From positions 15,562,110-15,626,109 of the forward strand of contig NC_134030.1 in assembly GCF_964204645.1 (NCBI RefSeq): a stretch of DNA of 64,000 bases, read 5' to 3'. The notes under the pieces are model-generated. The model did no database searches and was not told the DNA's origin. It saw only the letters and a list, made by a program, of their open reading frames with translations. This DNA is from Tubulanus polymorphus. Taxonomy: Eukaryota; Animalia; Nemertea. The first letter of the stretch is position 1; the number at the start of each line of letters is the position of its first letter. The position numbers and the translations under genes are program-made. This document shows positions 9,719 to 56,748 of the stretch, in pieces.

Positions 9719-9719
9719 T

Positions 9720-14366: not shown

Positions 14367-14623
14367 ATGAGAGTTTGAAGAATAATAGAATTTAAATAAA
14401 ATATGATAAAAAAACAATAACTTTAACTGCTTGTGAATTCTATTATATGTTTAATATTTTCTTTTCAAAAAAGAATACTTTATATCACAAATAAAAAATA
14501 CTAAAAAACAATAACTAATACTAAAATTCTTTACCTTTTACTAAGCTAGTATTAATCTAAAGAGATACTGGTATCATTTTATAATACTTATAATATTTTT
14601 CTTATTAAATTTCTCTAATATAA

Positions 14624-16717: not shown

Positions 16718-17276
16718 AGATTTATTTATATTTGAACCGCATAAAATGTTAGTTACTGGAGTAACAAACTGTGGTAAAACACATTTCATATTAGACTTGT
16801 TAGATACTATTTATAAGAATCATTTTGATAATATAATATTATTCTGCCCCACTTATGAAATGAATAAAACATATAATAGAGATATAGTTAAGATGAAAAA
16901 GTTTATTATATTAGATCCTAAAACAGTAAAAGAAAATTTAGATAATTGTATAAAAATAGCAATTGATACTTATAAAGGATCAAATACATTATTCATTATA
17001 GATGATTGCGCTAATTTACATGATTCAAAAGTGAGAGAAAGTGAGTTATGTTATCTAGCTTTCTCTGGGAGACATTTTGGGATAACAACATGGGTTTTAA
17101 ATCAAAAATATAATTCAATTGTTAAAGACTTTAGGGAGAATATAAGATTTCTAGTTTTATTTTATAACAAAGATAGAAAATGTATGCAACAATCATTGGA
17201 AGAAAATCAAATTATACCTACTGAGTTACATGATGTTCTAAAATCTAACCATAATGCATATTTATTACCGGTATAA
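16710..17276 (+). pseudogene. A32/FtsK-like packaging ATPase, 3'-truncated by a deletion
   Basis: Walker A GVTNCGKT, Walker B FIIDD, GRH motif; diverges from the element C copy after ~17233. Confidence 0.88.
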
Positions 17277-18308
17277 TAATAAATTTGATTAATGTTACAA
17301 TTTTCAGATGATTTTACTTTTTCATTCATAAAATGTTTTCTAATTTCTGGCCATTGATCAATCATTCTCATTCCTTGACAAAATATTTTATTTGCTATTC
17401 CTTCGATAGTTATTTCTACTTTTGTTATTTCAGGATTATAATAATTATCAACATTTATTGCGCCATTAGTATATGTTGCAATGGTAAAAAATATTAATAT
17501 GCCTTTAATAGATCTCCTTGGGAAGTTAATATTCTCATTAATTATTTCATCATTTGCATTAATAGTTACGGTTTTAAATTTATCAATATAATCATATAAT
17601 AATGAAAATCCTTGATTGTATTGAGTTTGAATTATACTTGAAATATTTTCATCAGTTACTGTGTCATATTCTAAACATATATTCGATAATTTATAACCCA
17701 TATCTTTAACAACGCTAGATATTACAATTTCATTTACAGGAGCAAATGTTATTTCGAATATAACGTCTTCTTGAATTGCATATTTATATAAAGGCGCATC
17801 ATTATTTATCAATTCAAAGTCTAATGGAATTTTATATTTGCTTCCATAAATCTTTTTTATCAAATTATCTGCGGTACGAGTTACTATTGCGTCATTAGCT
17901 CCTGATCTTAATTTATTATGGTTTTCTGATTGGATTCCTTGAAATATCGTATTATTTCTATTTTCTTTAGTTAACCATTAATCTTTATAATGCATAAATA
18001 AATTATAATCATCTAATGAGAAAACTGTTTCTGGACCAATCTTTATAGTTAATTTTTTAATCAAATATCTCCCAACATTATCAACAACATAATTATTATT
18101 ATTACCGATTACTTTTATATCGGCTGATAAATAAATACTATTTGGAACATAAAAAAGTATTTTGTGTTAATCTAGGAATTCTAACATATAAAGTTTCATC
18201 GGGATTAATATTAGAAGGATTATGAGTAATTATATGATGTGATCTTTCTGCTTTAATAGCATTAGATATTCTAGAAATCTTAGAAGGACTTATATAACTC
18301 CCACTCAT
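17207..18308 (-). pseudogene. Major capsid protein (double jelly-roll), frameshifted and 3'-truncated
   Basis: Colinear with 45272-46518; position and size in a Polinton gene set; beta-rich composition. Confidence 0.72.
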
Positions 18309-18328
18309 TTATTTAACAAAAAAATTAA

Positions 18329-19801
18329 TTATTTATTTTTTATTATTTTTTCTTGATATCTTTTTGATATCATATTCACTAACCCAAAAAAAATAGCACT
18401 TACAACTGTAATTAAAAATAAAATAATATGTTCAGCAGCAAAGTTAATAATGTTTCCTGCAGATTTCAATATAAAACCAACAATTGATGCAATAATTCCT
18501 GGTAATGCTGCAGCAGATTTTTTAGATAGTTCCCATAAATATTTTGCTAATTTCTTTAAACCATCCTTAACTTTATCTTGTATATAATTATTGTCATTCG
18601 GGGGTTTATCTGGTTTATTGGGAGTAGGAGTGGATTTCAGTGAATTTGATATTGCTAAACCTATTGTTGTAAATACCATAGTTACAGCTGTTAGAATTGA
18701 AAGAATTGTTATTCCTTCTAATTTAAATAATAACTTTATTCTATCTTTCAATGATATTTTAGAATTTGGTTTTAATAGATATCTTTTAAAAACATCTTTT
18801 AATCTTTTAAAATTATTACCAAATTCTTTTAATAATATATCTCTTTCACCTTTCAGTACTTCTAAATTATCTTTTAAATTATTAATTTTTTTAATTTTAA
18901 ATTATAAATTTTTTTAAACGCGATTCTTTTTGTCTATGTTCCATTTCATCAATTACTTGACGATCAAGACCAGACTTTAATTGTTCTATTTCTTTATTTT
19001 TATCAGTTAATTCTTTTTCTAAATTGTTAATTTTAATATCTCTTATACTTTTATTATGTGCAATTTTATCAGCTTCATTTCTTATACTAATAATTTCTCT
19101 AATTGCTTCATCAGAAAATATATTTAAATCTTCTAATTCTTGATCTGTTGCATCAAGTAATCCATTCGGTAAAAGTTTTTCAGTTTGAACTTCTCTTGAA
19201 TTAGGTTTACTAGTTTTGGAATTAATAACTTCTTTAGGAATTTTTTTTGTCTTAAATTTTCATTAATTATCTTAAAAAATTTAGCATTTCTTTGTTTAAA
19301 TTCTCTTCTATTATCAACTATCTCTTTTTCTGTAACATCAGTTATAACATCATTAATGATTTTCTTAATTCTATCTGGTTTAAATAAATTAAAAGTTGAT
19401 TGTGTTATTATTTTATCGTTACTTTTAAGATTTGAAATCTTAAAATAATAGTCGCCTTTCAATTTCCAATAATAATCACCATTAAAATATTTCAAATCTT
19501 TTACTAAATAATTCATACCTTTATTTGTTATATTGAAACCAGATCTTTTAAACATTGGTTTAAATTCATGAATAATTTCATTATATTTGTATTCTTTTTC
19601 TGTTATTTCTGGTACTTCATTTTCAATACTTATCTTTGAACGTGTTTTATCAATATATGGAGGTGTATTTAAATTAGAATTACGTCCTGGCTCATTACCG
19701 TCATTAAAACTTGTTTCATTAAAATCAGGTTGTTGTTCATCACTTATACCAGGTTCATCTAAAGGATCCAATGGAAAACCTTCTCCACCTTCTACATGCA
19801 T
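18329..19801 (-). pseudogene. Coiled-coil protein with C-terminal transmembrane helices (homolog 43999-45251)
   Basis: ORFs 19133-19801 and 18329-18751; C-terminal ~130 aa nearly identical to the element C copy. Confidence 0.65.
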
Positions 19802-19817
19802 TTATTTAATAAAGAAA

Positions 19818-21137
19818 TTAAAATTTAAAATATAATATTCCTCCGATTACAATTCCTATACAAGTTAAAGCTAATTTAGCATTTTCATGGGATTTATTAT
19901 CATCATTTAGTTTAATTATACCATGTTGAATAATATCAGTTCTAATATTTTCTGATGTATTGTAATCTTTTTATTTTAGAATCATTATTTAATTTGATAT
20001 TATTAGTTTTAGTTTCTGTTGATTGAATATGTTTTATATTTTTTTCACCTTCCATTAATTTTGGAGCAGTGATAATCTTTTTATTTATATCATTCAATCC
20101 AAATGAATTATGTATTGTTGCAGTTTTAATTAGATTATTGTAACCAATTATGTTTCCCATCTTTAATACTAAATCATTAGAAATAATTAATAGATTAGGG
20201 CCTATACAATAATTTAATCTAATATGTGATTCATCTAAATAGTTTTGATATCTTACAATGTTTTCTGGAATCGATCTATTTTTATCATTATGAATTGAAT
20301 CTTCAAATAATACTTTAAATTGTTTCTGCGCATCAAATGAAGTGTTATCATTTCCAACTATTGGGGATCTTGTTTCAACTTGTGCACCTAGAATACATAT
20401 CAAATAAGTTCTAATAGATTGATTTATTCTTTGTATACCAGCTTTAGTAAAACCTTCACTATTTTCTAAAATGAAATTAACCCAACCATTATTGTTTTGT
20501 TGTTGTATATTATTATAATATTTTGGTAATTCATTCCAATTTAGTGTTCTTATATCTGAATTTTTTCCAAATTCTTTAGTATATAATATTCCTAATCCAC
20601 CCATTGTTCCAATTTTTGCTCTAAAATCTTTATTTAAAATTAATATCAAATTCATTACATATTTTATAAAACTTAGAAAAATTAATATTATTATTCAATT
20701 CTTTAAAATATTTTGAACCTGGTAAATGACATTCTAATTCATCTAATATTAATTGTATTTGAAAATAAGTATGAAATCTAAAAAGTGATAACATCAATGG
20801 TAAACTTGGTTTGTTTAAATGATCATTCCAACTTATTCCACAACCTGTTGTTGCGCAATAAACAGCAAAATTTAATTGGTTCTGCCAATACTTCATATTA
20901 GATTTTAATAACCATTGTTTTGCCTCATTTAAATTTTTGAAATTAATTGTATACACATGAAATATATTTTCCACCTTTACATGGAAAATTATTACTTTCA
21001 GTAACATAAATATATAAATCAATTAATGAATTTAAAACTTCATTTCTATATGTAATATCTTTATTAAAATCTATTGCGGGAATATTATATTTAATTGATT
21101 TATTATATTGGAAAGCTTTTGGAAAACTATCTGCCAT
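19818..21137 (-). pseudogene. Conserved Maverick protein with KYWQNQLNFAVYCATTGCG motif and C-terminal TM anchor (438-aa homolog at 42667-43983)
   Basis: Three frameshifted ORF pieces align to the intact element C ORF. Confidence 0.7.
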
Positions 21138-21153
21138 TTATATAATTAAAAAA

Positions 21154-21588
21154 TTAATAATTTATTAATTCTTTTAATAATTTATCTTGTTCTTCAACTG
21201 TTATATGGCCATTTAGACTTATTATATAATCTAGTGTGTTCTTTAATTTATTAATTTCTTTTATATTAGTTTTAATTTTTTCTTTATCACTTTTTATATT
21301 TAATTTTGAACTTATACCAGTTTAAATACTTGAACTTAATCCTAATACACCAATTGATATAGCTAAAGGTGTTAATGGACTGAATATTGCTAGAAATGTT
21401 ATTACAGAACTAATTGTAACCGAACCACTTATAATCAAATAATATATAATTTTACTTTTTAAATATTTTTTCTTTTTTATCTTTAAGTCACTTTCAAATT
21501 CTAATATTTGTTTTTCTAAATATGTTTTTAATTTAGTTTTATTTATATCATGAGGAATAATATCAATATTATCAACTTTATCTTCCAT
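21154..21588 (-). pseudogene. Two-TM hypothetical protein (144-aa homolog at 42216-42650)
   Basis: Homology to the element C ORF; hydrophobic segments. Confidence 0.65.
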
Positions 21589-21606
21589 ATATTTAGAAAA
21601 AAATTA

Positions 21607-22000
21607 CTAATTAGTAAATTTATATGCTACAAATATAACAATAACAGTTCTGTTGTTCTTTACTTTGGGTATAATAATCTGATAATTTAGGTTTGTATAG
21701 ATGTAATTTTTCTTTATTTGTTACTGCGTTATATAAACTCATTGCATCATCAACTGATTGAAAATCTCTATGTGAAATCTTCTGATCATATAATTCCTTG
21801 TTAATATAATCCATATAGTTTTGTCTCTTTTCTCTATATTCTTCTGCTGCTTTATTGTATTTCTCTAATGCTAAGTGATGTCTTTTTTGTTCTGTTAATG
21901 ATCCATTTTTATCAATATGTTTAAATAAATAACCACCACCAGTAAATGCTAAATCGTTAACAATTTCCGATCCTATAATAGTTATAATTGCAGAAGCCAT
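21607..22000 (-). pseudogene. Membrane-associated hypothetical protein (MASAIITIIG...LAFTGGGYLF)
   Basis: Homologs at 41775-42197 and 58031-58444; small deletion near the 3' end. Confidence 0.65.
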
Positions 22001-22024
22001 TTATTTACTAAAATAATTACGCAT

Positions 22025-22246
22025 TTATATGGGAGGAATATATTTTTGTTTTTCTAAATAATCAATAGTTAAATTAGATAAACTAACTGCTAATGTTAAT
22101 TTTAAAATATCATTTATATCAAATCTATCAACATTAACACTTCCCATTTTAAATACTTTTTTTAATACCATTGAATAACCAACGGTTCCAACTGATAGTA
22201 ATTCTCCATTATATAATCCAGTTATTATCCACTTATTATCACTCAT
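22025..22246 (-). CDS. 73-aa hydrophobic hypothetical protein
   Basis: Near-identical intact ORF at 41529-41750; ATAAATG start. Confidence 0.7.
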   Translation of the reverse strand: MSDNKWIITGLYNGELLSVGTVGYSMVLKKVFKMGSVNVDRFDINDILKLTLAVSLSNLTIDYLEKQKYIPPI

Positions 22247-22585
22247 TTATTTATCAAAAAAATTACTATCATCAAAATATTTAGTTAACTTATTTATGAT
22301 TAATTCAACATTTATTTCATTACTAGTTTCATTTGTATATATTTCAATTATTATTTTTTTAATGTCATCGATGATAAAATCTTCATGTAATTCATAAAAT
22401 CTTAAAGATTCTCTAATTAAATTAGTAATCTTTTCTACATTTAAAGTTTCTTTATCTATTGTTGTTTCATTAGAAAATGTAATATTTTTGATATGTGTAA
22501 TTACATCATTAATGTTAAATTTCATTTCTTTCTCACGTTTAAAATCAAATCCAAAACATATACTCGGTCCAACAGTTATATTCAT
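22247..22585 (-). CDS. 112-aa hypothetical protein
   Basis: Homolog at 41171-41527; ATAAATG start. Confidence 0.65.
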   Translation of the reverse strand: MNITVGPSICFGFDFKREKEMKFNINDVITHIKNITFSNETTIDKETLNVEKITNLIRESLRFYELHEDFIIDDIKKIIIEIYTNETSNEINVELIINKLTKYFDDSNFFDK

Positions 22586-22658
22586 TTATATAGTGAAAAA
22601 AATTACTCTTTTCATCTTATAACTAATTCATATATTACAGGAAAGTTATTCAAATAAA

Positions 22659-23354
22659 TTAAATAACCATTATGATTTCTAATTTCAAATTATTGAAATG
22701 TGGAATACAAGGATTAAAATCACATTCAGCTAAATTATAATTTATTTGCGTTCCAAATTGTTTAACATTCTTCAATGGTAAAATGTTAAGTAAACCAGAA
22801 TTACAAGTTATATCTTTAGTTGCTTCAAATGTTTTTGGAGGATCGATTAAATTGCAATAAATATAAAAATGTGTAAAAGGTATTATATTTGAATTACCGT
22901 CTACGTTTCCTGTAACAGTTTGTGGTTTAATTCCTAACAGTTTAGCTAAAGGTTTCCTTACCATAAATGCATGTTTGCTTTCATCACCTAACTCTATTTT
23001 AATCTTATCAGAACTATCACTTTTTATAAATCTAATTGAAAATTTATCTTCACTTTCAAGTTTTAATCGTGCTTTCCGATTAATTTCTTGGGCTAATGTT
23101 TCTAAATTATATAACCCTGGTTTTAAAAAGAGATGAAACCATTTATCTACATTTCTAATATGAATTAAAAAGACTTTATGTTCGAGAGTTTTATCCGATA
23201 TATTATAAAAAGAATTACATAAACTTATATTAACTAATTTTAAATCTACACAATTCTTAAATTCTCTATCTAATTGTACTAGTAAATTATGAGATTTATA
23301 ATTTGTAAGTCTTCTTGAATCAACAAATATTCTGTATTCTTTTAATTCTACCAT
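22659..23354 (-). CDS. Minor capsid protein (penton, single jelly-roll), small 3' lesion
   Basis: IFVDSR, LVNISLCNSFYNI, PGLYN, LLGI, FYIYCNLI, LLNILP pattern typical of Polinton/virophage mCP. Confidence 0.7.
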   Translation of the reverse strand: MVELKEYRIFVDSRRLTNYKSHNLLVQLDREFKNCVDLKLVNISLCNSFYNISDKTLEHKVFLIHIRNVDKWFHLFLKPGLYNLETLAQEINRKARLKLESEDKFSIRFIKSDSSDKIKIELGDESKHAFMVRKPLAKLLGIKPQTVTGNVDGNSNIIPFTHFYIYCNLIDPPKTFEATKDITCNSGLLNILPLKNVKQFGTQINYNLAECDFNPCIPHFNNLKLEIIMVI

Positions 23355-23371
23355 TTATTTTACATATTTTC

Positions 23372-23725
23372 TTATTCGAAATCTATTTCATGGTGCCCTT
23401 TTTCATTCTTACCTTTGTATACGAAATAGAAATCACCAGAACATAATTCTTCTAGATCTTCACTTGATAATCTATGAAATCTATCGGGTAAATATGTTCT
23501 GAATTTATATGTATTTCCTTTTAATCCTTCATATTCTAAGTGTATAACTAATTTATCTCCATATTTGTTAGTAACTCTATCAATATTTGTAATTAGATAT
23601 TTCTTGTGGATTATTAATTCTTTTAACTTCTTAAATTTATAATCTACTGATTTGACATTTGAAGTATATTTTATTCTATCTAGAAATGATTTGTTGTTCT
23701 CACTGTGTGTTTGTTTACTCTCCAT
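23372..23725 (-). CDS. 117-aa hypothetical protein downstream of pPolB (possibly an OB-fold ssDNA-binding protein)
   Basis: Conserved in A, C and D; beta-strand pattern; function is inference only. Confidence 0.6.
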   Translation of the reverse strand: MESKQTHSENNKSFLDRIKYTSNVKSVDYKFKKLKELIIHKKYLITNIDRVTNKYGDKLVIHLEYEGLKGNTYKFRTYLPDRFHRLSSEDLEELCSGDFYFVYKGKNEKGHHEIDFE

Positions 23726-23754
23726 TTATAATACATATTTTTATTAAAATTTGA

Positions 23755-26700
23755 TTAACACGTTAGAATTCTTTTCATTATCTCGTTCTCTTTTGTTTCT
23801 TCTCTTTTAAATTTTAAGTATTCATCTAAATTACATCCATAAGCAACTGTATGAATTCCATCATCTAAAATATATCTTTTATCATCAAATGGGTTTAGAC
23901 TTATCTTTTCAATTTCTTCAATAAACATTTCATGATCTTCAGATCTTAAACATCTCATTTTATGTTTTCTAACTTCTTCATTGAATATACAATTGATGTA
24001 ATCTTTGAAATGAATATTCTTTTCTACCACATTTTTGGTTTTTCCTTTTAACTTTTTAGCTTCATGTTCTTTAGTTTTATATGAATACATTTTAGATCTA
24101 ATACCAATGAATTCAATCATTTCTTCGCCACCTAATTCATCTTTGAATTTACCGGGAACTTTTTTATTATCATTGCTAAAAAATTCATGATCTTTAGGAT
24201 AGTTACTAAAATCAAAATGATGTTTTAATGTTTTTAAATCATCTGTTATGTTATCAGTTTTTATCTTTAATATGTAACTGTCAGTATCAAAATATAATAT
24301 TTCTATATGTTTTTCTCCAAAAAGTAGTTGTAATATATTATAATAGAATTCATACATTAGTAATTTTGATAATTCTAAAACTGATGCGCCAACATAGATT
24401 GGTTTATTAAATTTCATTGATGTTCTTCTCATTTTAACTGCAGCTAAATTTTCATCAAATATCCTGTTACCTATAAATTTAGGATATGATTGTAAATGTC
24501 TAATTCTTTTACCATTACTAACTAACTCAATATCATTTCTATTTCTAATATTTTCACAAGTCTTACCATAGAATGCATTGTTCATTAACTTGAAGAAATC
24601 TTTTTCGAAATCAGTTTTAGCTTCAGTTCTCTGTTTGGTGTTAAAATCTATATATTTTTCTAACCATTTAGATTGACTAAATGAAATATATCTATGTACT
24701 TTTTTTAGAACCATTCCTTGATTCAAATAAAACTTTAACATTCTATAATGTACTACATAATTATATTTATCTTTTTGAGTTACCATTAACTTTTCTGTAT
24801 GAATATGATTTTCGGGTTTAATTCTTTTTTGGTAATTTGATAATTCTTCATGAGTTACAGTTTTATGTTCGGGACAGTATGCTAGATTTCTAGATTTAAA
24901 TTTTTTATCTTCAGGATATTCTAAATCTACAACAAAGAAGTAACCAGTATCTGAATCATCTGCAATATCTAGAATTCTTTTCTTCCAATCAAATTTATCA
25001 TTATTTTCATTCTGTAAAACTTCAGTTAATTCAAATACTCCATAAGGTTGTGGTTCCATCATTGCCCAACCATACAAATTATTTGCATCTATATATAATA
25101 ACTTATATCCAGGGTTATCATTTACATTGAAATATCTATCCCCTAATACACCTGAAACACCTCCTCTTATAGATTTTTCAAATAATAGTAATTGATCTAT
25201 ATTTGTTAACAAATCCATTTTTATATCCGTAAATTTTAATCCACAATCCCATGTTAAACCTGGTGATGAATAACAATGACATGGATCAATATTAAAATAT
25301 TTTAGGTTAACATCTCTAAACCTTTCGAATATATCGGTTAATAATAATACATCTGATTTTAGAAATCTACTTATTGTCCATGATTTGTTATTTTAAAATG
25401 ATTCCAAATGTTCAATGTTCTGTTATAGACTTCATCTTTAACATATTCATTTTTTAATTCATCATAGAATTGTTCTTTTAATAATTCAGTTATGTTAAAA
25501 TCATTATGATTTTTATAGAAAGAATATGGAATTGCTCCTTTATATCTCATTAATTGGAAATCATCATTATTTGGGTAGTGTTGTTTTAATATTTTCAATT
25601 CATCATCAACTAATGATTTTGATAAGTTATCTAATGAACTATTTAAAAATCTATATGAATCTATAAATCTTAGACAACCAAATTGGAATGATATATAATT
25701 CTCAGATGTTTTAGCTAACATTCTAAATTTATAAGTTGGTATTTTATCTTTTGATCTATTTGAATTTAATCTTTCTATTTCGTTATTAATTTCTTCTATT
25801 TTATGGCATAACTGTTTGATGAATAAATGTGCATCATATCCTGATAGATTATGAAATATAACTGGTACAAAATTAATTTTCTTAGCTTGTAAGTTACAAT
25901 TCTCATGTGCAGCGCCTCTAAACTTTCCGTTCAAATGATCATGGTCTCTTACTTTTTTATCTTTATAATTAAATATCTTTTCACAATAATAACATTTATC
26001 TGCAAACGCAAATGCTTCTTTATCTTCTTCTGTCATTATAATTTCTATATTTGTATTCAATAATTTACTAAATCTTATTTCATATTCAATTAATAAGTCA
26101 CAAAAATGATTGATAACATTTTCAATTCTGTAATTATAATATTCACTTTCAATTAGTTCTGGATAATCAGATTTAATATATAACCCGAAAGCAGCAGCTG
26201 ATTGATGAATCTTTTTAATAGTATTTGTTTTTGGTGGTTCATCTGAAAAATCATTTTCATTAGAATTTAATTTCTTTCTTTTATAATATATTTCTTTTCT
26301 ATCTTGATCAGTTAGTTCTTTATTTAATGATTCAAAATCTCCATATATAACAAATGGATCTTCATTTTTGTAATCATATTTTTTGAATTCTAATATTTTA
26401 TCTTTTTCATTTGGTAAAACTAATTTACAATAATCATGATTTTCACATAATTGTTTATGATTCAATAATGTACTTTCATTACTGAATCTATGTAAACATT
26501 TTCTACAAAGATATATTTTATTATGGTGATCACTTTCCGTTCTAAAGAATAAATCTATTTGTTTAATCCACATATAATGATTCTCATAATATAATATATC
26601 TATAACATCATTTGAATCATAATCTTTTGATAGATATAAAGGTTCTAATGTATAATGTTTTATATTGTTACCTTTTGTATTTGGTAATTTGATTAAATCA

Positions 26701-27785
26701 AATACGTTTATTCTTAAATTATTATCTCTTTCTATTTTTGGGATGTTTTTGATTATAACAGGATACTTATCTATCTTATAATTATTTTCAAATGGTTTAT
26801 AATGAGTTAATCTACAAATATTATAAGTTGCAGGATGTAAACAACTTATTATAGCCCATAGAAAACATTTATCATCTTCATTTTGTACATTTATTACAGC
26901 TTTAGTTTTAAATGGTAGTTTAATATAACTCGATGCTTCAATATCTGGTTCTTTATGATATGATACATTATTTTCATCAATTGGTTTTGATTTAGTTAAC
27001 TTATTACATTTTGTGTTATAAACATGTAAAGTCATAAATATTATTTCATCAAATATTAAACCAGATCCTTCAAAAAATTTCTCTTCTATTTTAGTTTTTA
27101 CTTCATTATAACATTTATCTAATTTATCATCTATATGTTGTTTTGAAATAATATGTTGTGAATGAGAATTTATATTATATATTGGTTTATCTTCAGATTT
27201 TATGAATTTAACTTTTGATGAAATACTTATTTTAGGATATTCAACATCAGTTATTATTTTTATTATTTCTTTCATATTTTCTAAATGTTTTTTATTTTCT
27301 TCTAATGTTTTTCCTTTATGAAATTTAAACTCGATAGCTGCTGGGCCAATATCACTTTTAAATGCTTCGGTTATCTCTATATCTTTTTTATTATCTAATG
27401 AATTAATATATTTTCTTACATCTTCCATGTATGGTCTTTTATTGTTTAATTTATTTTGTATGCTTTTAATTGTCTTCTGTTTCTTATCATTATCTTTATC
27501 AAAATAATCTTCACCTAAAATATCATTATTCATATTTCTAATATGACTTATAGATTTTAAATGTTCTTTATAATATCTTTTATCACTGAATGATTGATTA
27601 CATGTATCACATTTATATGTTTCTTTTTCATTCTTTAATTCATCTAATTTAGTTTCTAATATATCATCTTCATATTCTAGTTTCAATTTATTGTCTAAAT
27701 GTGTTTTAGTTTTATTGTGTCTTGCTTTTTGGGATTTATCTATATTGATATTACATGTTGGACAGTAGTACTTATTTGTTTCCAT
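23755..27785 (-). pseudogene. polB: Protein-primed family B DNA polymerase (pPolB) with ZnF, OTU-like and EndoVII/HNH inserts; disrupted near 25371
   Basis: ExoI YGDFES, ExoII FHNLSGYD, motif A YIDANNLYGWAM, motif B KLMNNAFYGK, motif C YFDTDS; KVRDHDHLNGKFRGAAHENCNL. Confidence 0.95.
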
Positions 27786-28053
27786 TTTAATATCAAATTT
27801 TTTATTAAAATTGATTTTAGAAGTTAATCATTTATATTTAATTCATATATATGAATATTTTAAGAGTAATAGGGATAATAGGCTTTCAGGTTAAAGGTTG
27901 AAGGGGCGAGTGAGTAAAAAATGAAAATAATAATAATTTACAGTTGAATTAGGAGTGTGCGCGACTAATTCAACTGTAAATTATTATCATTTTCATTTTT
28001 TTACGAGCTCGACCCTTCGACCTTTGATCTGAAAGCCTATTATCCCTATTACT
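27521..28053 (-). repeat. Right TIR of element A (hairpin 27865-28053)
   Basis: Inverted copy of 12588-13120. Confidence 0.93.
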
Positions 28054-28350
28054 TATACAAAACCAAAATAATGAATTGTCGCGGGCGACAAAACAAAAAA
28101 GAAGAATTGTCGCGGGCGACAAAACCAAAATAATGAATTGTCGCTGGCGATAAAACCAAAGTAGTGAATTGTCGTGGGCGATAAAACCAAAATATTGAAT
28201 TTTCGCGGGCGACAAAACCAAAATAATGAATTGTCGCAAGCGATAAAAGCAAAATAATGAATTGTCGCGGGCTATAAAACCAAAATATTGAATTCTCGCG
28301 TGTGACAAAATCAAAATCATTGTTTTCTCGCGTTATTTTAGTTTTGTCGT
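28054..28350. repeat. End of the 31-bp satellite array, closed by an inverted partial unit
   Basis: Tandem units resume after element A; TTATTTTAGTTTTGTCG at ~28333-28349 is an inverted unit. Confidence 0.85.
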
Positions 28351-28843: not shown

Positions 28844-29356
28844 TCATGATGAGGAGAAACTCGCAGCTGATCCCCGGAACGACGATGTAGTAACACACGT
28901 CGATTCGTCGATGTTTACGGCTCGACAGTGCTTTTAAAATCTAAAGTAGTAAATTTCCAGTGTATCGGTAATATGATCTGATGAGGAAAGTGGGCTATTG
29001 TTAAAATCACTGTTTGAAGACCGCGACTGAATGTGAAGTCTGCGGCAATAAATTAGTTCATTTATACTTGAATTGATAATCGAAGTGACAGTCGGCCTGC
29101 GGGTTGATTTCGGGATGACGACTCGAAAAACATGTCGCCCCTGTGAATGGGGCTAAATTTTCGATGTTTACGGCCCGACAGTGCTTTTGTAACGATGATT
29201 CGTGAAAAAAAACGCGGGCTATAACAGAAATAACAGAAAACCCTAATAAGAAACACGCGAATCTCAATAGGGTTTTCTGTGATGTAACAGAAAACCCTAA
29301 TAAGAAACATGCGAATCTCAATGGGGTTTTCTGTGATGTAACAGAAAACCCTAATT
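28844..29356 (+). repeat. Dispersed repeat (copy of 7342-7720) followed by a 54-bp palindromic tandem repeat
   Basis: Identity to 7342-7720; AACAGAAAACCCTAATAAGAAACACGCGAATCTCAATAGGGTTTTCTGTGATGT in about 2.3 copies. Confidence 0.8.
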
Positions 29357-29389
29357 ATTCCATCAACATTTAACACACAAGAAAAGAAA

Positions 29390-29764
29390 ATGTATTTATA
29401 TTTATTATTTAACGATTATTATAAAAAACCTAAATTAACAGAAAAAGATATGGAAAATATAAAATACATATTTAAACAAATATTAAGATATTATGTGGAT
29501 AATAGAATAACAGATTCAATTAATTATGAATTCTTTTTAAATAAGATTGTAAATTATTTAAACATCGATATTATAATTCCATTTGATGAATTAACAAACA
29601 AAAAGAAACAAAGAGAGCGAGATGAAATATGGTACAAGATAGAACTTTATTTAAATGAGAAAAATGAAATGGAAGAACCTAAACAAATTATACAAGAACA
29701 ATTAAATAAAAAAGAAGAAACCAATAGTGATTTCGAGTTTGATGACATTGATTTTATGTCTTAA
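29390..29764 (+). CDS. 124-aa hypothetical AT-rich ORF, convergent with pPolB-B (stops overlap on TTAA)
   Basis: Open frame with element-like codon usage and acidic tail. Confidence 0.45.
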   Translation: MYLYLLFNDYYKKPKLTEKDMENIKYIFKQILRYYVDNRITDSINYEFFLNKIVNYLNIDIIIPFDELTNKKKQRERDEIWYKIELYLNEKNEMEEPKQIIQEQLNKKEETNSDFEFDDIDFMS

Positions 29765-32700
29765 TAACCATAAGGTAATGTTTTTATACCATCATCTAAA
29801 ATATGCCTTTTATCATCAAATGGATTCAAACTAGTTTTTTCAACTTCATTAATGTACATCTCGTGATCTTTTGATCTTAAACAATTCATTTTATGTTTCA
29901 TTACAATTGAGTTGTATAAACACTGAATATAATCTTGAAATTCTATATGTTTATCAACCACATTTTTTGTTATTCCTTTTAACTTTTTAGCTTCATGATC
30001 TTTTGTTCTGTAACTATACATTTTACTTCTTATCCCAACAAATTCAATCATTTCATCACCCCCTAATTCATCTTTAAATTTACCAGGAATCTTTTTATTA
30101 TCATTGCTAAATAGTTCGTGATCTTTAGGATAATTGCTAAAATCAAAATGATGTTTTAATGTTTTTAAGTCTTTTGTTATGTCATTTGTCTTGATTTTTA
30201 GTATGTAACGGTAAGTATTTTTGGCTATTAATGGAAATCCACAGTTAAATGTGCCATCTTCAGTTGATAAATCATAAACATAATCTGTTGGGTTACATAT
30301 TTCAAATAAATCTTTAACTTCTTCAGTTAAATCTTTTTCTGTATGCCTTAAATTAAAACAATTTGGCTTAGATTTAATTAATTCTATATTCATATTAAAT
30401 CCTAATGAACTGCATAATATATTCAATCCTGATATAGCAACTTTTCCTTTTTGTGCAAAGGTTATCTTTTTATACTTAATAAATTTTTTAGTACCATCTG
30501 CTGCGTAGAATCCAATGAAGAACCATTTTCTTAAATTATCTTTTGCATTTAATACATAATCTGGAACTATCTTTTCTTTTGTTGAAGTATTACTTTTCAC
30601 TATTGCATGAATATAGAATTCATCATTATATTTTATAGCAAAATCTTTAGGATTATTTACAAGTAATCTATAAACTGCTGATGATTTCATAACATCCATG
30701 ATTCTAAATGTTTTTTGTGAATAAACTTCTTCACAAAATTTCTTAATTCTTTCTAATAATTTCAAGTCTTGATTGCATAAATACCAACAATATTTATTAC
30801 CCCAAACGTAATTATACACACCTGCTGAACCATCACCCATGAAAAATCCTTTGATAAAATATTCTTTTTCTTCTAATGTTTCAGGTTCTATATTATAAAT
30901 ATTATCAATAATTTCGTCGAATGACATATGATTCATTCTTTGGAAAAATCTTTTATGTAATAATTTATCTCCAATTTTTATATCAGTTGGTTTTATTTCA
31001 TCACCATTTCGTTTAATTAAACTATGATCTTCTGTATCATCTACAAACCCTAATTTAGTTCTAACTCTATAGATTTTCTTATTTGTTTTATGCCTAATAA
31101 TATTCTTTAATTTTTTCCATCCATTTCTTGTCCAAACATCCATTAGACCATTTATTTGTATTAATTCTTTTTCACCATACGAAATATATAGTTCGTTTTG
31201 TTTTGGAATTATTTCTGAAATTCTTCTTATCAATATTTTATTATTACATTTTTAATAATATTGGGGTGTCAGCTGTTACAGAATCAAAATATAATATTTC
31301 AATATGCTTTTCCCCAAAAATTGGTTGTAAAACATTATAATAAAAATCATACATTAATAATTTTGTTACTTCTAAAACAGTTGAACCAATGAATATAGGT
31401 TTATTAAATTTCATTGACGTTCTTTTTAATTTAACTGCTGTTAAATAATCTTAAATAATCGTAAATCTTTTATTTCCTAGGTGTCTAGGACTTGAATGTA
31501 GGTGTCTTAATCTTTCAGAATTATTTACTAATTCAATATCATTTCTATTTCTAATATGTTCACATGTTTTACCATAAAAACTATTATTCATTAATTTGAA
31601 GAAATCTTTTTCAAATCTGTTTTTGATATGGTTCTCTGTTGAGTATTGAAATCTATATATTTTTCTAACCACTTCGATTGATTAAATTCAATATATCTAT
31701 GTACTTTCTTTAATTTCATTCCTTGTTTTAGATAAAATTTTAACATTCTATAATGAACGATATAATTGTATTTATTATTTTGAGTTAGTATTAATTTTTC
31801 TGTAAAAACACGATCTTTCGGTTTTATTTTCTTCTGGTATTCACTTAAATAACTATCATCTACGGTTAAATGTTCTGGGCAATAAGGTAAGTTTCTTGTT
31901 TTAAACTTTATATTTTCAGGATATTCTAAATCAACTACAAAGAAATAACCAATTGGTGTTTCATCTTTTAAACTCGTAATTGCGCTTTCCCAATCAGTTT
32001 TATCGCCATTTTCAACTTCTGTTAATATAAAATGTTTGTATGGTTGAGGTTGCATCATTGCCCAACCATATAAATTATTGGCGTCAATATATAATAATTT
32101 ATATTCATCATTTGCTTTAAAATATCTATCTCCCATAACACCACTAATTCCACCTCTAATTGATTTTTCAAATACTAAAACCATGTCTGGTTCTTTTAAT
32201 AAATCTAATTCTACATTTGTGTATTTTAAACCACATTGCCAGGTTAAACCAGGACTAGAGTAGCAATAACAAGGATCAACATTAAAATGATTCAAATTAA
32301 CTTCTCTAAATTTTTCAAATATGTCAGCCAATATCATAACATCTGATTTTAAATATAAATCAACTAATTCACCATGATTTTTCATCTTAAAATGGTTCCA
32401 AATATTTAATCTTCTATTAAACACTTCATCTTTCACATACTCCTCTTTTAATTGATCATAAAATTGATCTTTTAATAATTCTGTTACATTAAAATCATTG
32501 TGTGTTTTATAAAATGAATAAGGAATTGCACCTTTATATCTCAATAATTTAAAATCTTGTTCATTTGAATAATAATATCGAGTTATAACAAAATCATTGT
32601 CAACTAAACTTTTTGCTAAATTATCTAATGAACTTGCTAGAAATCTATAAGAATCTAAAAATCTAATGCAACCAAATTGAAATGAAATATAATTTTCGGA

Positions 32701-34839
32701 TGTCTTAGCTAATATTTTTAAATCATATTTTCTTACATTTGTACTATTCATAGCATTATATTCTTCTATTTCTTGATTAATTGAGCCCAATTTTCCTGAT
32801 AATTGTTTTATAAATAGATGAGTATCATAGCCCGATAAATTGTATGAAATATCATTGGTACGAAATTAACTTTTTTAGCTTGTAAATTGCAATCTTCATG
32901 AGCAGCTCCGCGGTATTTTGAATTTAAATGATCATGATCTCTAACTTTTTTATCAAATGAATAAAAACGTTTTTCACAATAACAACAATGAGTTGCATAA
33001 TTAAAATCAATTTCATCTTCTTTTGTCATAACTATTCTTTTATTTTTGTTTAATAATTCTGCAAAATCACTTTCTAATTCAATTATTTTGTTACAAAAAT
33101 TATTAACTACGTCTTCACCTCTAAAAGAAATATATTGACTTTCATATAATTCAGGATAATTTGATTTTATATAAATTCCGTAAGCAGCAGCTCTTTGATG
33201 AACTTTTTTAATTGTATTTATAATTGGCGGGTCTTGTATTGTGTCTTCATTTAATTCATTTCCTTTATCCATTGATTTTAATAATTGCTTTTTGTTATAT
33301 ATTTCTGTTCTATCTTGATCAGTTAATTCTTTATTCAACGATTCAAAATCCCCATAAATTACAAATGGAACAATATTCTTAAATTTATGATTATTAAATT
33401 TCAATTTATAATCTTTTTCTGTTGGTATTATTGATTTACAAAAATCTTTATTATCACATAATTCTTTATGTTTTAATAATGTATTCTCAGTCATAAATTT
33501 AGATAAACATTTTCTACGATAAATTTTAAGATGATGATCACTTTCTGTTCTAAAGAATAAATCAATTTGTTTTAACCACATATAATGTTCATTTTCATCT
33601 TTTTTTGTAACATAAAAAATCTATAGCATTTTCATCATCATAATATTCTGTTAAATATAAAGCTTCCAATGTATAATCTTTAATATTTTCACCTTTTGTC
33701 TTTGGTAATTGCATTAATTCGAATACATTTATTTTTCAATTATTAACTTTTTCTATTTTAGGAATCATTATTATAGTTACTGGATATTGATCAATTTTAT
33801 ATAATGTTTCATATTTCCGGTAATTTGTTATTCTAAAACTATGTGTAATATCTTCTGTTGGATGTAAACAAGTAATAATTGTCCATAGAAAACATTTATT
33901 ATCTTCATTTTGATCATTTATTACTGCTTTTGTTGTAAATGGCAATTTAATATAACTTGATGCTTTAATATCCTTTTCTGTTGTAAAGTTGGAATCATTT
34001 TTAAACATTTTATTACTTTTTGATGTTTTATTTCTTTTTGTATTATAAACATTTAAATCTAAATATATAATTTCATTTAATGATAAGCTAGAACCTTCAA
34101 AATATCTTTCTTCAATATGACGTTTAAATTCATTAAATATTTTTTCTAACTTCTCTTTTATTTGTGTTTTTGAAATTATTTCTTCAGAGTGTGTTTGAAT
34201 ATTATAATCCATTTTATCTTCTGACTTTAAAAATCTTACTTTCCCAGAGATACTAATTTTTGGATATTCAACATCTGTTATCAAATCTAGTATTTTTTCT
34301 ATTATTTCATTAAATTTACTATAATCTTCTATTGTTGTACCTTTAAAAAATCTAAATATAATAGCTGCAGGACCAATTTTACTACGTAATGTTTCTAATA
34401 TTTCAATTGTATCTTTTATTTCTAGTGAATCGATATAATTTCTAACATTTTCCATGTAAGGTTTATTTGAAATGGATTTAGTTTTTGAAGTTGATTTTTT
34501 TACTTGTTGAGGTTTATCATCAAAATAATCTTTTCCTAAAACATTATTACTCAAATTTTGATGGTGTTTTTGTGATTCGAGATGTCTTTTATAATTCCAT
34601 TTTACTATAAATTCATTACAAACTTCACATTTTATTTCATCCACAATCATATCATCTAATCGTTCTTTTCTTTCATTGGAATTTTCTGGAGTTTCAAAAT
34701 CTATTACATTATTTATATGATTTGCAGATTTTTCGTGTTTAGATTTATTAGATTTATCGATGTATTTTTTACAATATGGACAATAATATTGATTTTTATT
34801 GACATTATTGTTTTCTATATGTTGTTCATTCTCCCCCAT
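29761..34839 (-). pseudogene. polB: pPolB of element B, intein-containing, with several frameshifts
   Basis: ORFs 33736-34839, 32808-33581, 31591-32790, 31451-31672 and 29761-31233 carry the pPolB motifs in order. Confidence 0.93.
30217..31282 (-). mobile_element. Intein with LAGLIDADG homing endonuclease in pPolB motif C (~355 aa, one frameshift near its start)
   Basis: YFD|SVTADTPILL start; block B TEDHSL; LAGLIDADG helices FIKGFFMGDGS and FFIGFYAADGT; block F DYVYDLSTEDGTF; block G LIAKN|T. Confidence 0.92.
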
Positions 34840-36229
34840 TTATTAGGGAAAAAAATTACTTGTGGTGATGAGTGGTGTCTCGTACTCTCGTACTCTGGTA
34901 TGAAACCCACATCTTCCAATTACTGTCAGCGTTGTGATAACCTTTGATCTGTGGTCAGTGGACAGCAGCTACGAAACATTTAAAACTACTACATTATCAT
35001 TCCATCTATATTCATATATATGATATGATATGATATCTTCTTTAATCTTCCGTTTAAAAGTCTTGAACGTAAAAGTTCGATAAGTTTCGCATGTTGGTAC
35101 CGATACGCACGTTCATGCGAGTGAAATGTGCACGTTACAGGCTCAAATGCGCACGTTACAATAACAAATCGAAACGTTGTTCGTTTAAAACCCTACATAA
35201 AAATCTTATGCATTTAGTGAGAAATTTCAAAGTTTCAAAGTTCGCTCGCTACCTACAACAAAAATCGGACAAGACTTTTCAAGCGACAAAGTTAAATGTA
35301 AGAGCTAGTAGTACTAACAAAGGATTCAGGCAATACCCGTGTCATTTCTAAAACATTCAACCGGTAAATAGACAGAACTGATGTAGCTTGTACAGGTAAA
35401 AAGAAGAGTTGTTATATTTACGTTCAGGCCAAATGAAATCATTTGATACCAGACACGACTAAGTTGTTTCCGAAACAGATCCATATAGCTATGTGGTCAG
35501 TATTGGTCAAAAATTGGTCAGTTAAATAGTTGTTTGATCATAGCCCGCACCATATCTAGTCGCTCGACGCCCAAACACGATTTTATGGCTTTACTAAACA
35601 TATAAATTACTTATGGTGGGCTCTGGTTAGCACTGGTAACTGGTCAGTATTGGTGAAGCATTGGTCAGTTAAACAATTTTTAGATTAATGTCCACATCAT
35701 ATCTAGTTATTGACACCAAACAAATATATTGATTGCAAAACAAATAATTTACTATATGGCTAGTACCGGGTACTGGTCATGCATTGGCCAGTTAATAGAC
35801 AAGGTCCACGGCACGAGTTATTTGATACCAAACATGATTGGATTGTGTCGTTTCGAAAATTTATCTGTTGGGCAATTTGACTGTGGTCTGCCCTGGTTCG
35901 TGAGGTTCTTATTTTGCCGGCATTTTATCTCGAACACCGAAAGACTAAATTACTAATTAATTCAACAGATCATTAATCAATGGAAATGAAGATCAGTGTT
36001 TAACTAATAGTCCTTATTCTGAATAAATGTCTCTGGTATGGGTGCTATGGTGCTTGGAATCAGGTCCTTAACTGTACACCGTACTGTATCTTTGTACTGT
36101 ATCTTTTTATTTTCACTACTACCGTAATTGACTATGATGTTTTCAAGTGGTCTTAAGTACCGCTAATAGCCGAAAGTCGTTGATTTATGTGAAATTTACA
36201 TACAGCGCCACCCGTTGGTAGTAAAACTA

Positions 36230-36264: not shown

Positions 36265-36814
36265 CAAACCGGCATTCTCATAATGTACATTTATAATTCA
36301 TAGATTATCAGCTGATTTACTGTAATCAATCATTCCTTTGCGATTTTGATATTACTCTAGTAATAGGGATAATAGGCTTTCAAGCCAAAGGTCGAGAGGT
36401 CGAGAAATTTTCCAAATATGAAAATAACAATAATTTCTAGTTGAATTAGTCGCGCACACTCATAATTCAACTAGAAATTATTGTAGTTTTTTCATATTTG
36501 TAAAATTTCTCAACCTCTCAACCTTTAGCTTGAAAGCCTGTTATCCCTATTACTCTTAAAATATTCATATACATGAATAAAATATATATGAATAACATAT
36601 AAAAGTAATAGGAAAAGTGGGGTTTCAGATCAGAGGACGGAGGACGAGCCATTATAAATAGATATATAGATATATTTTTAACATATTTCAATATTTATAT
36701 TTGTATGAGTTAGATTTTTAAACATAAAAAGTGTGAGTAAAGTGTGATTGAAATAATTCATATTTAAATCATTGAACTTCTAAAATCAATTTAAGAAAAA
36801 AATTTAGTATTAAA

Positions 36815-39800
36815 ATGGAAGCAAATAAGTACTACTGTTCAACATGTAATATCAATATAGATAAATCTCAAAAAGCAAGACACAATAAAACTAAAACGCA
36901 TTTAGAAAATAAATTAAAGTTAAAATATAAAGATGATATATTAGAAACTAAATTAGATGAATTAAAGAATGAAAAAGAAACATACAAATGTGATACATGT
37001 AATCAATCATTCAGTGATAAAAGATATTATGATGAAAATTTAAAATCTAAAAGCCATATTAGAAATAAGATTAATGATATTTTAGGTGAAGATTATTTTG
37101 ATAATGATAATGATAAGAAACAGAAGACAATTAAAAGAATAAGAAATAAATTAAACAATAAAAGACCATACATGGAAGATGTAAGAATTATTATAATTCA
37201 TTAGATAATAAAAAAGATATAGAAATAACCGAAGCATTTAAAAGTGATATTGGTCCAGCAGCTATTGAGTTTAAATTTCATAAAGGTAAAACGTTAGAAG
37301 AAAATAAGAAACATTTAGATAGAAAATATGAAGAATATTATAAAAATAATAACTGATGTTGAATACCCTAAAATTAGTATATCTTCTAAAGTAAAGTTTA
37401 TAAAATCTGAAGATAAACCAATATATAATATAAATTCTCATTCACAACATATTATTTCAAAACAACATATAGATGATAAATTAGATAAATGTTATGATGA
37501 AGTAAAAACTAAAATAGAAGAGAAATATTTTGAAGGGTCTGGTTTAATATTTGATGAGATAATATTTATGACTTTACATGTTTATAACACAAAATATAAT
37601 AAGTTAACTAAATCAAAACCAATAGATGAAAATAATGTATCATATTATAAAGAACCAGATATTGAAACATCGAGTTATATTAAACTACCATTTAAAACTA
37701 ATGTTGTAATAAATGTACAAAATTTTGATGATAAATGTTTTCTATGGGCTATAATAAGTTGCTTACACCCAGTTGAAGATTATAAAGAACATAGTTTAAG
37801 ATTAACACATTATAAACCATTTGAAAATAATTATAAGATATATAATTATCCTGTTAGAATTAAAAATATCCCAAAAATAGAAAGAGATAATAATTTAAGA
37901 ATAAATGTATTTGATTTAATCAAATTACCAAAAACAAAAGGTAACAATATAAAACATTATACATTAGAACCTTTATACCTATCAAAAGATTATGATTCAA
38001 ATGATGTTATAGATATACTATATTATGAAAATCATTATATGTGGATTAAACAAATCGATTTATTCTTTAGAACAGAAAGTGATCACCATAATAAAATATA
38101 TCTATGTAGAAAATGTTTACATAAATTCAGTAATGAAAGTACATTATTAAATCATAAACAATTATGTGATAATCATGATTATTGTAAATTAGTTTTACCA
38201 AATGAAAAAGATAAAATATTAGAATTTAAAAAATATGATTACAAAAATAAAGTACCATTCGTTATATATGGAGATTTTGAATCATTAAATAAAGAATTAA
38301 CTGATCAAGATAGAAAAGAAATATATTATAAAAGAAAGAAATTAGATTCTAATGAAAATGATTTTTCAGATGAACCACCAAAAACAAATACAATTGAAAA
38401 GATTCATCAATCAGCTGCTGCTTTCGGGTTATATATAAAATCTGATTATCCAGAACTAATTGAAAGTGAATATTATAATTACAGAAATGAAAATGTTATC
38501 AATCATTTTTGTGACTTATTAATTGAATATGAAATAAGATTTAGTAAATTATTGAATACAAATATAGAAATTATAATGACAGAAGAAGATAAAGAAGAAT
38601 TTGAGTTTGCAGATAAATGTTATTATTGTGAAAAGATATTTAATTATAAAGACAAAAAAGTAAGAGACCATGATCATTTGAATGGAAAGTTAAGAGGCGC
38701 TGCGCATGAGAATTGTAATTTGCAAGGAAAGAAAATCAATTTTATACCAGTTTTACTTCATAATCTATCCGGATATGATGCACATTTATTTATCAAACAG
38801 TTATGTCATAAAATAGAAGAAATTAATAATTAAATAGAAAGATTAAATTCAAATAGATCATAAGATACAATACCAACTTATAAATTTAAAATGTTAGCTA
38901 GAACATCTGAGAATTATATATCATCCCAATTTGGGTGTTTAAGATTTATAGATTCATATAGATTTTTAAATAGTTCATTAGATAACTTATCAAAATCATT
39001 ACTTGATGATGAATTAAAAATATTAAAGCAACACTATCTAATTCTAAAAAAGTACATAGATATATTTCATTTAGTCAATCTAAGTGGTTAGAAAAATATA
39101 TAGATTTTAACACCAAACAGAGAACTGAAGCTAAAACTGATTTTGAGAAAGATTTCTTCAAGTTAATGAATAATGCATTCTATGGTAAGACTTGTGAAAA
39201 TATTAGAAATAGAAATGATATTGAGTTAGTTAGTAATGGTAAAAAATTAGACATTTACAAACATATCCTAAATTTATAGGTAACAGAATATTTGATGAAA
39301 ATTTAGCTGCAGTTAAAATGAGAAGCACATCTATGAAATTTAATAAACCAATTTATGTTGGTGCTTCAGTTTTAGAATTATCAAAGTTATTAATGTATGA
39401 ATTCTATTATAATGTATTACAACCTCATTTTGGAGAAAAACATGTAGAAATCTTATACTTTGATACTGACAGTTACATATTAAAGATAAAAACTAATAAC
39501 ATAACTGATGATTTAAAAACATTAAAACATCATTTTGATTTCAGTAACTATCCTAAAGATCATGAATTGTTTAGCAATGATAATAAAAAAGTTCCTGGTA
39601 AATTCAAAGATGAATTAGGTGGTGAAGAAATGATTGAATTCATTGGTATTAGATCTAAAATGTATTCATATAAAACTAAAGAACATGAAGCTAAAAAGTT
39701 AAAAGGAATTACCAAAAGCGTTGTTGAAAAGAATATTCATTTCAAAGATTACATCAATTGTATATTCAATGAAGAAGTTAGAAAACATAAGATGAGGTGT

Positions 39801-55700: not shown

Positions 55701-56748
55701 TCATACAGAAAAGTTAATGGTAACTCAAAAAGATAAATATAATTATGTAGTACATTATAGAATGTTGAAGTTTTATTTAGATCAAGGAATGATTCTAAAA
55801 AAAGTACATAGATATATTTCATTTAGTCAATCTAAGTGGTTAGAAAAATATATAGATTTTAACACCAAGCAGAGAACTGAAGCTAAAACTGATTCCGAGA
55901 AGGATTTCTTCAAGTTAATGAATAATGCATTCTATGGTAAGACTTGTGAAAATATTAGAAATAGAAATGATATTGAGTTAGTTAGTAATGGTAAAAGAAT
56001 TAGGCATTTACAAACATATCCTAAATTTATAGGTAACAGAATATTTGATGAAAATTTAGCTGCAGTTAAAATGAGAAGAACATCTATGAAATTTAATAAA
56101 CCAATTTATGTTGGAGCATCAGTTTTAGAATTATCAAAATTACTAATGTATGAATTCTATTATAATGTATTACAACCTCATTTTGGAGAAAAACATATAG
56201 AAATCTTATATTTTGATACTGACAGTTACATATTAAAGATAAAAACTAATAACATAACTGATGATTTAAAAACATTTAAACATCATTTTGATTTCAGTAA
56301 TTATCCTAAAAATCATGAATTCTTTAGCAATGATAATAAAAAGCGACCCGGTGAATTCAAAGATGAATTAGGTGGTGAAGAAATGATAGAATTCATTGGT
56401 ATTCGATCTAAAATGTATTCATATAAAACTAAAGAACATGAAGCTAAAAAGTTAAAAGGAATAACCAAAAGTGTAGTAGAAAAGAATATTCATTTCAAAG
56501 ATTACATCAATTGTATATTCAATGAAGAAGTTAGAAAACATTAGATGAGATGTTCAAGATCAGAAGATCACGAGATGTTTATTGAAGAAATTGAAAAGGT
56601 TAGTTTGAATCAATTTGATGATAAAAGATATATTTTAGATGATGGAATTCATACAGTTGATTATGGTTGCAATTTAGATGAATACTTAAAATTTTAAAGA
56701 GAAGAAACAAAAGAGAACGAGATTATGAACAGGATTCTAACGTGTTAA
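52728..56748 (+). pseudogene. polB: pPolB of element D, with multiple stops and frameshifts
   Basis: ORF fragments carry the pPolB motifs; empty YFDTDS site. Confidence 0.92.

Follow-up and report, generated by a model that had tools for sequence, protein, structure and literature searches.

Homing-type inteins, probably a single lineage, in motif C of Polinton-type protein-primed DNA polymerases

The window analysed here, a 64,000-nucleotide stretch of contig NC_134030.1, holds several Polinton-type elements, and in one of them, element B, the gene for a DNA polymerase of family B (PolB), protein-primed in type, is interrupted within catalytic motif C. The insert is very probably a LAGLIDADG intein, predicted to splice and likely to have spread by homing, the copy present in the window being dead. 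The preliminary description of this DNA had reported a homing-endonuclease intein inside a Maverick/Polinton polymerase; the finding is broader than that, as sequence comparison points to a Polinton-borne lineage of homing inteins and not to a one-off.

The element B intein lies on the minus strand at 30217..31282 (1,066 bp, that is 355 codons plus one base), between the Asp and the Thr of motif C (YFD/T, where the slash marks the insertion point here and below). Six-frame translation, by which the motifs were located, places YFD at 31291-31283 and SVTADTPILL from 31282, and BLASTN alignments with uninterrupted polymerase copies stop precisely at 30218 and 31279, in agreement with the split after YFD by about 355 codons proposed at the outset. 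All the motifs named at that time were found in place, on the same strand. Block A (SVTADTPILL, 31253..31282) brings the Ser1 nucleophile, present in 8/8 intact Polinton-type relatives, and block B displays the T-x-x-H signature as TEDH (31024..31035; translation and alignment). The two LAGLIDADG helices, FIKGFFMGDGS (30826..30858) and FFIGFYAADGT (30490..30522), each include an acidic catalytic residue and correspond to modelled helices 126-139 and 238-250, both with a pLDDT (predicted local distance difference test) of about 90. Block F (DYVYDLSTEDGTF, 30247..30285; translation and alignment) contains its Asp within VYDL, and block G (30217..30222, by translation) closes the intein as IAKN, with a penultimate Lys and the terminal Asn. 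A 496-codon open frame (29761-31251) holds TEDH (31035), GFFMGDG (30849), GFYAADG (30513), DYVYDLSTEDGTF and IAKN, followed by T-Y-R and the remainder of the polymerase. The residue set of class 1 inteins, namely S1, TEDH, the VYDL Asp, the terminal N and T+1, is complete in the insert, and both catalytic acidic residues, the block B His and the block F Asp are retained in 8/8 aligned rows.

The window copy of the intein is dead, since a one-base shift in a T-run (31249..31253, minus strand) breaks its frame, the second catalytic Asp of motif C is gone, and the N-extein is broken near 31460, 31612 and 32841. The first C-extein residues (30208..30216, minus strand) read TYR, Thr+1 being retained. 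Translation confirmed both the early frame shift and the decay of TDS to TYR, which had been noticed beforehand. In the 8 intact relatives the insertion keeps an open frame, whereas the window copy itself is frame-broken.

On the window intein, the Pfam family LAGLIDADG_3 (PF14528) matches with E 1.1e-5, above its curated cut-off; together with the two helices and their acidic catalytic residues, this argues for a LAGLIDADG endonuclease with predicted cleavage activity. Intein_splicing matches the window piece without block A with E 3.3e-7 and 30.7 bits, under the cut-off of 35.8, whereas the intact relatives P0002 and P0003 exceed it. Thus, the profile search suggested earlier as a check succeeded for the endonuclease domain and fell short, in the window piece, for the splicing domain. 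An AlphaFold model made from the native open piece of the window intein (pLDDT 74; predicted template modelling score, pTM, 0.77) is predicted to have the Hint fold of class 1 inteins. Its best Foldseek match is TliVMA (E 1.3e-12), ranks 1-12 among the matches listed are all homing-endonuclease inteins, and the model aligns with solved inteins across their full length, I-DmoI being matched as well. PI-PkoII was also matched by profile (E 3e-9).

The interrupted gene matches DNA_pol_B_2 with E 3.4e-13, as a protein-primed family B polymerase does. Its N-extein (31283..34830, minus strand, start approximate) comprises a zinc finger, an endonuclease-VII-like domain and DNA_pol_B_2, and its C-extein (29761..30216, minus strand) is 79-80% identical to the proteins of elements A and C. 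Elements A, C, D and a fifth copy constitute one family, mostly 86-94% identical, and element B (about 29340-34900) belongs to a second family with 73-80% nucleotide identity to A, C and D (BLASTN). Translation and BLASTN both show that these three carry the empty allele YFDTDS, as first described. The empty site is located at 24277..24294 in element A (12588-28053; minus strand, reading from 24294), at 39456..39473 in element C (36359 to about 52230; plus strand) and at 56209..56226 in element D (52280-60254; plus strand), and the fifth copy (60255-64000) leaves the window ahead of the motif C site.

A search of long proteins returned 87 matches, the 8 best of which are open inteins at the same motif of Polinton-type polymerases, 40-64% identical to the window intein, and at least 14 sequence clusters of related polymerases show the intein junction. 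One intein-bearing cluster (P0002) comprises 136 members, on contigs of up to 1 Mb, which is in keeping with repeats of a eukaryotic host, and another comprises 121. The P0380 cluster (55 members; P0443-P0453) also bears the intein, and several of its listed members are truncated and lack the catalytic Asp that should follow the junction, a decay like that of the window copy.

The main intein tree, unrooted, was built from 9 Polinton-type inteins and 36 non-Polinton ones, those with the highest scores among 197 left after de-duplication; all 9 stand on one side of a branch (100/100) opposite the 36 closest others. They also come together in two quick trees with outgroups (SH-like approximate likelihood ratio test, SH-aLRT, 92 and 99). 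The next-closest inteins are all in family B polymerases of large-DNA-virus type, and the closest non-Polinton database relatives are Nucleocytoviricota-type PolB inteins, mostly 30-45% identical. Non-Polinton relatives with defined ends are located at YGD/TD in 221 of 260 cases, and 152 of the 161 fetched loci have an open intein, all at YGD/TD, several in contigs of giant-virus metagenome-assembled genomes (MAGs). When Polinton-type relatives were sought at DNA level, one weak locus came up, two scans gave none, and 160 further loci were all viral-type polymerases of other kinds. Insertion at YxD/TD[SG] and kinship with the inteins found there identify a pol-c allele, in trees composed without archaeal pol-c inteins. 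These results uphold the preliminary description on its central claim, a homing-endonuclease intein at the pol-c site of a Polinton-type polymerase, with large-DNA-virus PolB inteins at YGD/TDS as its closest non-Polinton kin. Of 413 non-Polinton relatives of PolB type, 29 end in G-[FY]-P as the Polinton clade does.

Intein and extein identities are similar (62 vs 60% between the window and P0001, 48 vs 46% between the window and P0002, and 40 vs 48% for a further pair), and the intein tree and the polymerase tree share groups for 8/9 lineages; the intein thus appears to be an old resident of this polymerase clade. The acquisition of a large-DNA-virus-type intein by a Polinton, as first proposed, agrees with the kinship, but a recent pick-up by this particular element does not agree with the matching distances. 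For P0004, the polymerase domain is 19-23% identical to all others, whereas the intein is 40-47% identical to the others and nested in the Polinton clade at 98/92. This would require a lateral move between polymerase classes, "class" being set here by the 19-23% identity alone, without reference polymerases of Alpha/Beta, group 1/2 or pPolB1/2. The distribution of diversity suggests a giant-virus origin of the Polinton inteins. Rooting with topoisomerase-II and phage-type inteins gave no stable sister group, and no specific donor family is claimed. An atlas search with the intein retrieved solely phage, prokaryote and giant-virus clusters, and no eukaryotic one. Related inteins are also present in type II topoisomerases at DQD/TDG (P0035, P0037, P0355, P0360-P0362, P0366, P0368 and P0369); this site resembles the polymerase site, which suggests that the topoisomerase inteins jumped to a non-allelic gene.

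The intein-bearing family was also followed in the raw reads of run X5, which has the same organism label and comes from another study, with an identity cut-off of 88%. From 12% of the run, reads span all of element B at a depth of 110-410, so that element B is multi-copy. The depth over the intein is about 0.65 of that of its flanks, a ratio blurred by cross-mapping and by the cut-off. The reads differ from the window in 168 of 211 cases at the frame break (31249) and in 136 of 137 at the damaged motif C (30213); both lesions are therefore a property of few copies, the frame break being confined to a minority. Moreover, 7 reads omit precisely the insert, hence empty alleles of B's own family exist. 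The B family in these reads is mostly intein-bearing, mostly free of the breaks of the window copy, with a few precisely empty alleles. Among the polymorphic intein sites listed for 30235-30288, 9/11 are third codon positions (binomial p about 0.001), an excess that points to purifying selection among diverged intein copies. Both intein junctions are traversed by independent reads and contigs.

Possible footprints of homing come from the P0002 cluster, in which the comparison covered the 13 members long enough to include the site, out of 15 listed and a total of 136. Among these 13, seven have the intein and six are empty, with 94-99% identity outside the intein. All fixed differences between filled and empty members (10/10) are located at -6..+44 residues from the site, of 1,191 columns, a clustering reached in 0/10,000 permutations, which ignore relatedness. 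Diversity among the empty alleles is about eightfold higher at the site than elsewhere (0.17 vs 0.02), variant empty sites being YTDCDS, YFDTDA and YGDTDA. In the P0005 cluster, filled P0105 and empty P0108 share 99.7% identity across 742 residues of extein. In archaea, invading inteins are documented to co-convert the residues beside them (PMC10643990; papers given by PMC number or DOI are cited here for the accessible part of their text). The P0002 pattern fits what cut-and-repair conversion combined with escape from cutting would leave, whichever way the conversion ran.

Several points weigh against an intein that splices and homes in Polintons. The penultimate His of class 1 inteins is replaced by Lys in element B; this residue, known as non-obligatory, is His in 5, Lys in 2 and Ser in 1 of the 8 intact relatives, and Lys is common in giant-virus relatives. 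The Polinton status of the intact relatives is read from the polymerase alone, and the trees are unrooted, with a sister group of the Polinton clade that varies from one to another, so that donor and direction are putative. Elements A, C and D match the 30-bp site of element B at 28, 26 and 27 positions, yet 3/3 are empty, and cross-family homing in this genome is not evident; repair across 20-27% flanking divergence may fail, or the enzyme may spare their sites. Finally, the filled P0002 members form one clade of the extein tree (100/99), which vertical descent would also give; the branch depends largely on the flanking tract, for 13/136 members compared.

Judged from sequence signs, the host is likely an invertebrate animal. 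Under a doubtful alternative, the same intein would reside in a non-animal host, a protist or a fungus with Polintons, and the Polinton claim alone would stand. Indeed, Rfam and Pfam detected in the flanks of the window no host gene, RNA family or diagnostic protein, Polinton-type polymerases are also known outside animals (PMC8502044; 10.1101/2023.08.22.554363), and the nuclear inteins reported so far are all from fungi and protists (PMC5784728). However, the neighbours found in the atlas for the family-A polymerase are 94-100% eukaryotic, with Arthropoda the commonest (taxa from few records), the sole named polymerase relative is from a scallop (33% identity), the elements are flanked by kilobase satellite arrays, and the runs containing this DNA share one organism label. 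In addition, the record of the relative P0006 names a lucinid clam's gill symbiont as its source, for which host DNA in the bin would be the simplest reading. P0006 corresponds to NCBI MBV2113503.1, an intein-bearing Polinton-type polymerase annotated to a bacterial symbiont MAG.

A less probable alternative accepts a splicing intein but denies it homing: the endonuclease would be idle, the intein being passively carried by amplifying Polintons, and empty sites would arise by precise loss or recombination. The concordance of intein and extein trees in 8/9 lineages, the empty A, C and D beside B, and the single clade of filled P0002-type copies can all be claimed for it. Unused endonucleases usually decay, whereas here the two LAGLIDADG helices persist with their acidic residues in 8/8 aligned rows at 40-64% identity; many giant-virus relatives of the intein are shortened to 200-280 residues. 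The tight grouping of filled/empty differences at the site and the lateral jump called for by P0004 also speak against passive carriage. Readings of the insert as a Hint (Hedgehog-like) domain derived from the host, as a fragment of a contaminating giant virus or as a chimera of the assembly are so improbable that they were rejected: Intein_splicing does stay under its curated cut-off for the window piece and animals do encode Hint domains (PMC5784728), but the insert has a LAGLIDADG domain and ends in Asn, with Thr+1 next to it at a catalytic motif, its G+C (0.25 vs 0.23-0.26) and third-position G+C (GC3, 0.15 vs 0.15-0.19) match those of the exteins, independent reads and contigs cross both junctions, the same fusion is open in proteins of other sources, and Foldseek retrieves intein folds.

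For the homing intein favoured here, a mechanism can be proposed. Ser1 would perform the N-O shift with the aid of the block B Thr and His, as in standard class 1 chemistry, Thr+1 would accept the N-extein, and cyclization of the terminal Asn would leave the polymerase motif rejoined, so that an intact carrier could replicate all the same. The freed intein would then cut the empty YxD/TDS site of related copies, and repair off a filled copy would convert the site together with a short flanking tract. Empty targets could be supplied by the many copies per nucleus or by co-infecting virions. A single ancient entry of the intein into this polymerase lineage is probable, the most likely source being a nucleocytoplasmic large DNA virus (NCLDV); the intein would subsequently have been inherited with the polymerase and repeatedly lost or evaded, with at least one jump to a very different protein-primed polymerase. 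The chances are about even for the wider proposition that animals harbour living self-splicing homing inteins, captured by Polintons from giant viruses, established in the germline of several invertebrate lineages and acting as a gene drive among copies, with empty copies escaping by a change of the active site.

Satellites with repeat units of 31 and 154 bp fill the first 12.5 kb of the window, and five Polinton-type segments of about 23% G+C come next. The part of element B in the window, about 5.5 kb, includes just the polymerase and a VLTF3-like gene (29390..29764, plus strand; Pox_VLTF3, E 4.3e-7), convergent with the polymerase. This gene has no homologue in the other elements within the window, and its read depth in X5 resembles that of the polymerase. 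VLTF3 is a giant-virus core gene reported earlier in some polintoviruses (PMC11131425), and the VLTF3-like gene represents a second giant-virus link in the element B family. A short repeat starting with AGAG (34879..34897, minus strand), just upstream of the polymerase, is the putative terminus of element B and the one putative end found for it, with no matching opposite end in the window. The left edge of element B, immediately upstream of the VLTF3-like gene, is occupied at 29231-29355 by a 54-bp tandem repeat (2.3 copies, 97%). A 379-bp dispersed CpG-rich repeat, perhaps a small non-autonomous transposon, is present at 7342-7720 and 28844-29222 (98% identical), one copy beside the left end of B and the other within the satellite block.

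In the sister family, element A has integrase, A32 ATPase and capsid-like genes and terminal inverted repeats; rve, Pox_A32 and weak Capsid_N matches were obtained in A and C and not in the 5.5 kb of B, and the Pfam search of the window elements gave no match for a protease. The inverted repeats of element A are 537 bp long (12584-13120 and 27521-28057), with no clean 6-bp target duplication. They include the start of the polymerase gene, whereby the opposite end of the element has a second copy of a zinc-finger frame (12814-13506). Near-perfect palindromes of 185-270 bp make up the family-A ends (12588-12776, 27865-28053, 36359-36554, 52280-52463 and 60255-60522); the four that were folded each form a single long DNA hairpin of -53 to -102 kcal/mol (without shuffle control), possibly a replication origin structure. 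Element C, element D and the fifth copy are arranged head to tail across 36359-64000, D and the fifth copy being truncated, as a concatemer-like or nested array. Whether filled or empty, the copies have the endonuclease-VII-like (PF02945) domain upstream of the polymerase core (spans 25374-27827, 32811-33620, 37319-38830 and 53973-54896). The satellites (1-12585 and 28057-28332) comprise the 31-bp repeat with higher-order variants and the 154-bp repeat, and element A sits inside a 31-bp array. Rfam detected no family in the window, 27 flanking or unassigned frames gave no informative Pfam family, and Pfam matches such as Med25 and Clavanin on satellite frames were set aside as repeat artefacts.

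An intein clade in Polinton polymerases would be a route for inteins into probable animal chromosomes. It is also evidence, read directly from sequence, that DNA was exchanged between giant viruses and Polintons, as well as between Polinton classes far apart, and such an exchange requires that the partners shared a cell. Where one genome has both filled and empty alleles, sequence suffices to measure homing, co-conversion and target escape, and the intact relatives offer new meganuclease candidates, which would have evolved in a eukaryotic nucleus.

The preliminary description held self-splicing inteins to be essentially unknown in animal nuclear genes. The literature surveyed agrees, with the qualification that the element B intein is in a proviral gene and not in a host gene. 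A survey of eukaryotic inteins from 2018 names fungi, algae, protists and large DNA viruses as carriers, and no animal nuclear case figures in its accessible text (PMC5784728). No Polinton or animal nuclear intein was found in the literature, supplements, Repbase, InBase and most subscription papers aside, where an unnoticed entry is possible. The word intein is absent from the main text of the adintovirus paper and of the coral polintovirus paper, and no such intein is described in the accessible parts of PMC12220804, PMC3671162, PMC13768754, PMC5718144 and PMC10991399.

Among known systems, inteins in virus-like polymerases have already been reported from nuclear scaffolds of two green algae, Klebsormidium and Tetrabaena, and of a labyrinthulid (Gallot-Lavallee et al. 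2023, PMC10710043). There as here, an integrated viral polymerase gene brings the intein into a eukaryotic nucleus; however, those hosts are algae and a protist, whereas the carrier in the Polinton case is a transposon-virus present in many copies, some filled and some empty, within one genome. The main text of that paper, supplements aside, has none of the words polinton, maverick, animal and metazoa. Endonucleases within Polinton polymerases are likewise known, as HNH and VSR nuclease domains (Jeong et al., 10.1101/2023.08.22.554363), and such insertions were suggested to stem from intein invasions (Krupovic et al. 2024, PMC11161782). As far as the accessible text of these two papers goes, the insertions are of HNH, VSR or GIY-YIG type with no splicing domain described, and "homing" and "LAGLIDADG" are absent from the main text of Jeong et al. 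By contrast, element B has a complete Hint and LAGLIDADG intein in the catalytic motif, thus supplying the intein that PMC11161782 merely inferred for Polinton polymerases.

The combination of Hint and two-fold LAGLIDADG domains is shared with TliVMA (7qsu/7qss), PhoVMA (7qst), PI-PkoII (2cw7) and PI-SceI (1vde) (Foldseek E 1e-12 to 1e-7), whereas these archaeal and yeast structures are 10-18% identical and belong to other host proteins and sites. The closest likeness is to the pol-c inteins of Mimivirus and Nucleocytoviricota PolB, at the site that Ogata et al. (2005, PMC549080) define in the PolB of archaea and of Mimivirus; the comparison with Mimivirus was made by description. Common to both are motif C YxD/TDS, a length of about 350 residues, Ser1, the block B Thr/His, the terminal Asn, Thr+1 and a dodecapeptide endonuclease. 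Unlike NCLDV PolB, the host protein of the element B intein is a protein-primed PF03175-type polymerase with almost no likeness outside the motif, its carrier is an integrated multi-copy element in chromosomal DNA, and the Polinton inteins form a separate clade. With the sequence and modelled fold of a class 1 LAGLIDADG intein apart from the penultimate His, the element B intein would be expected to work as Mimivirus-type pol-c inteins do, its activity being predicted.

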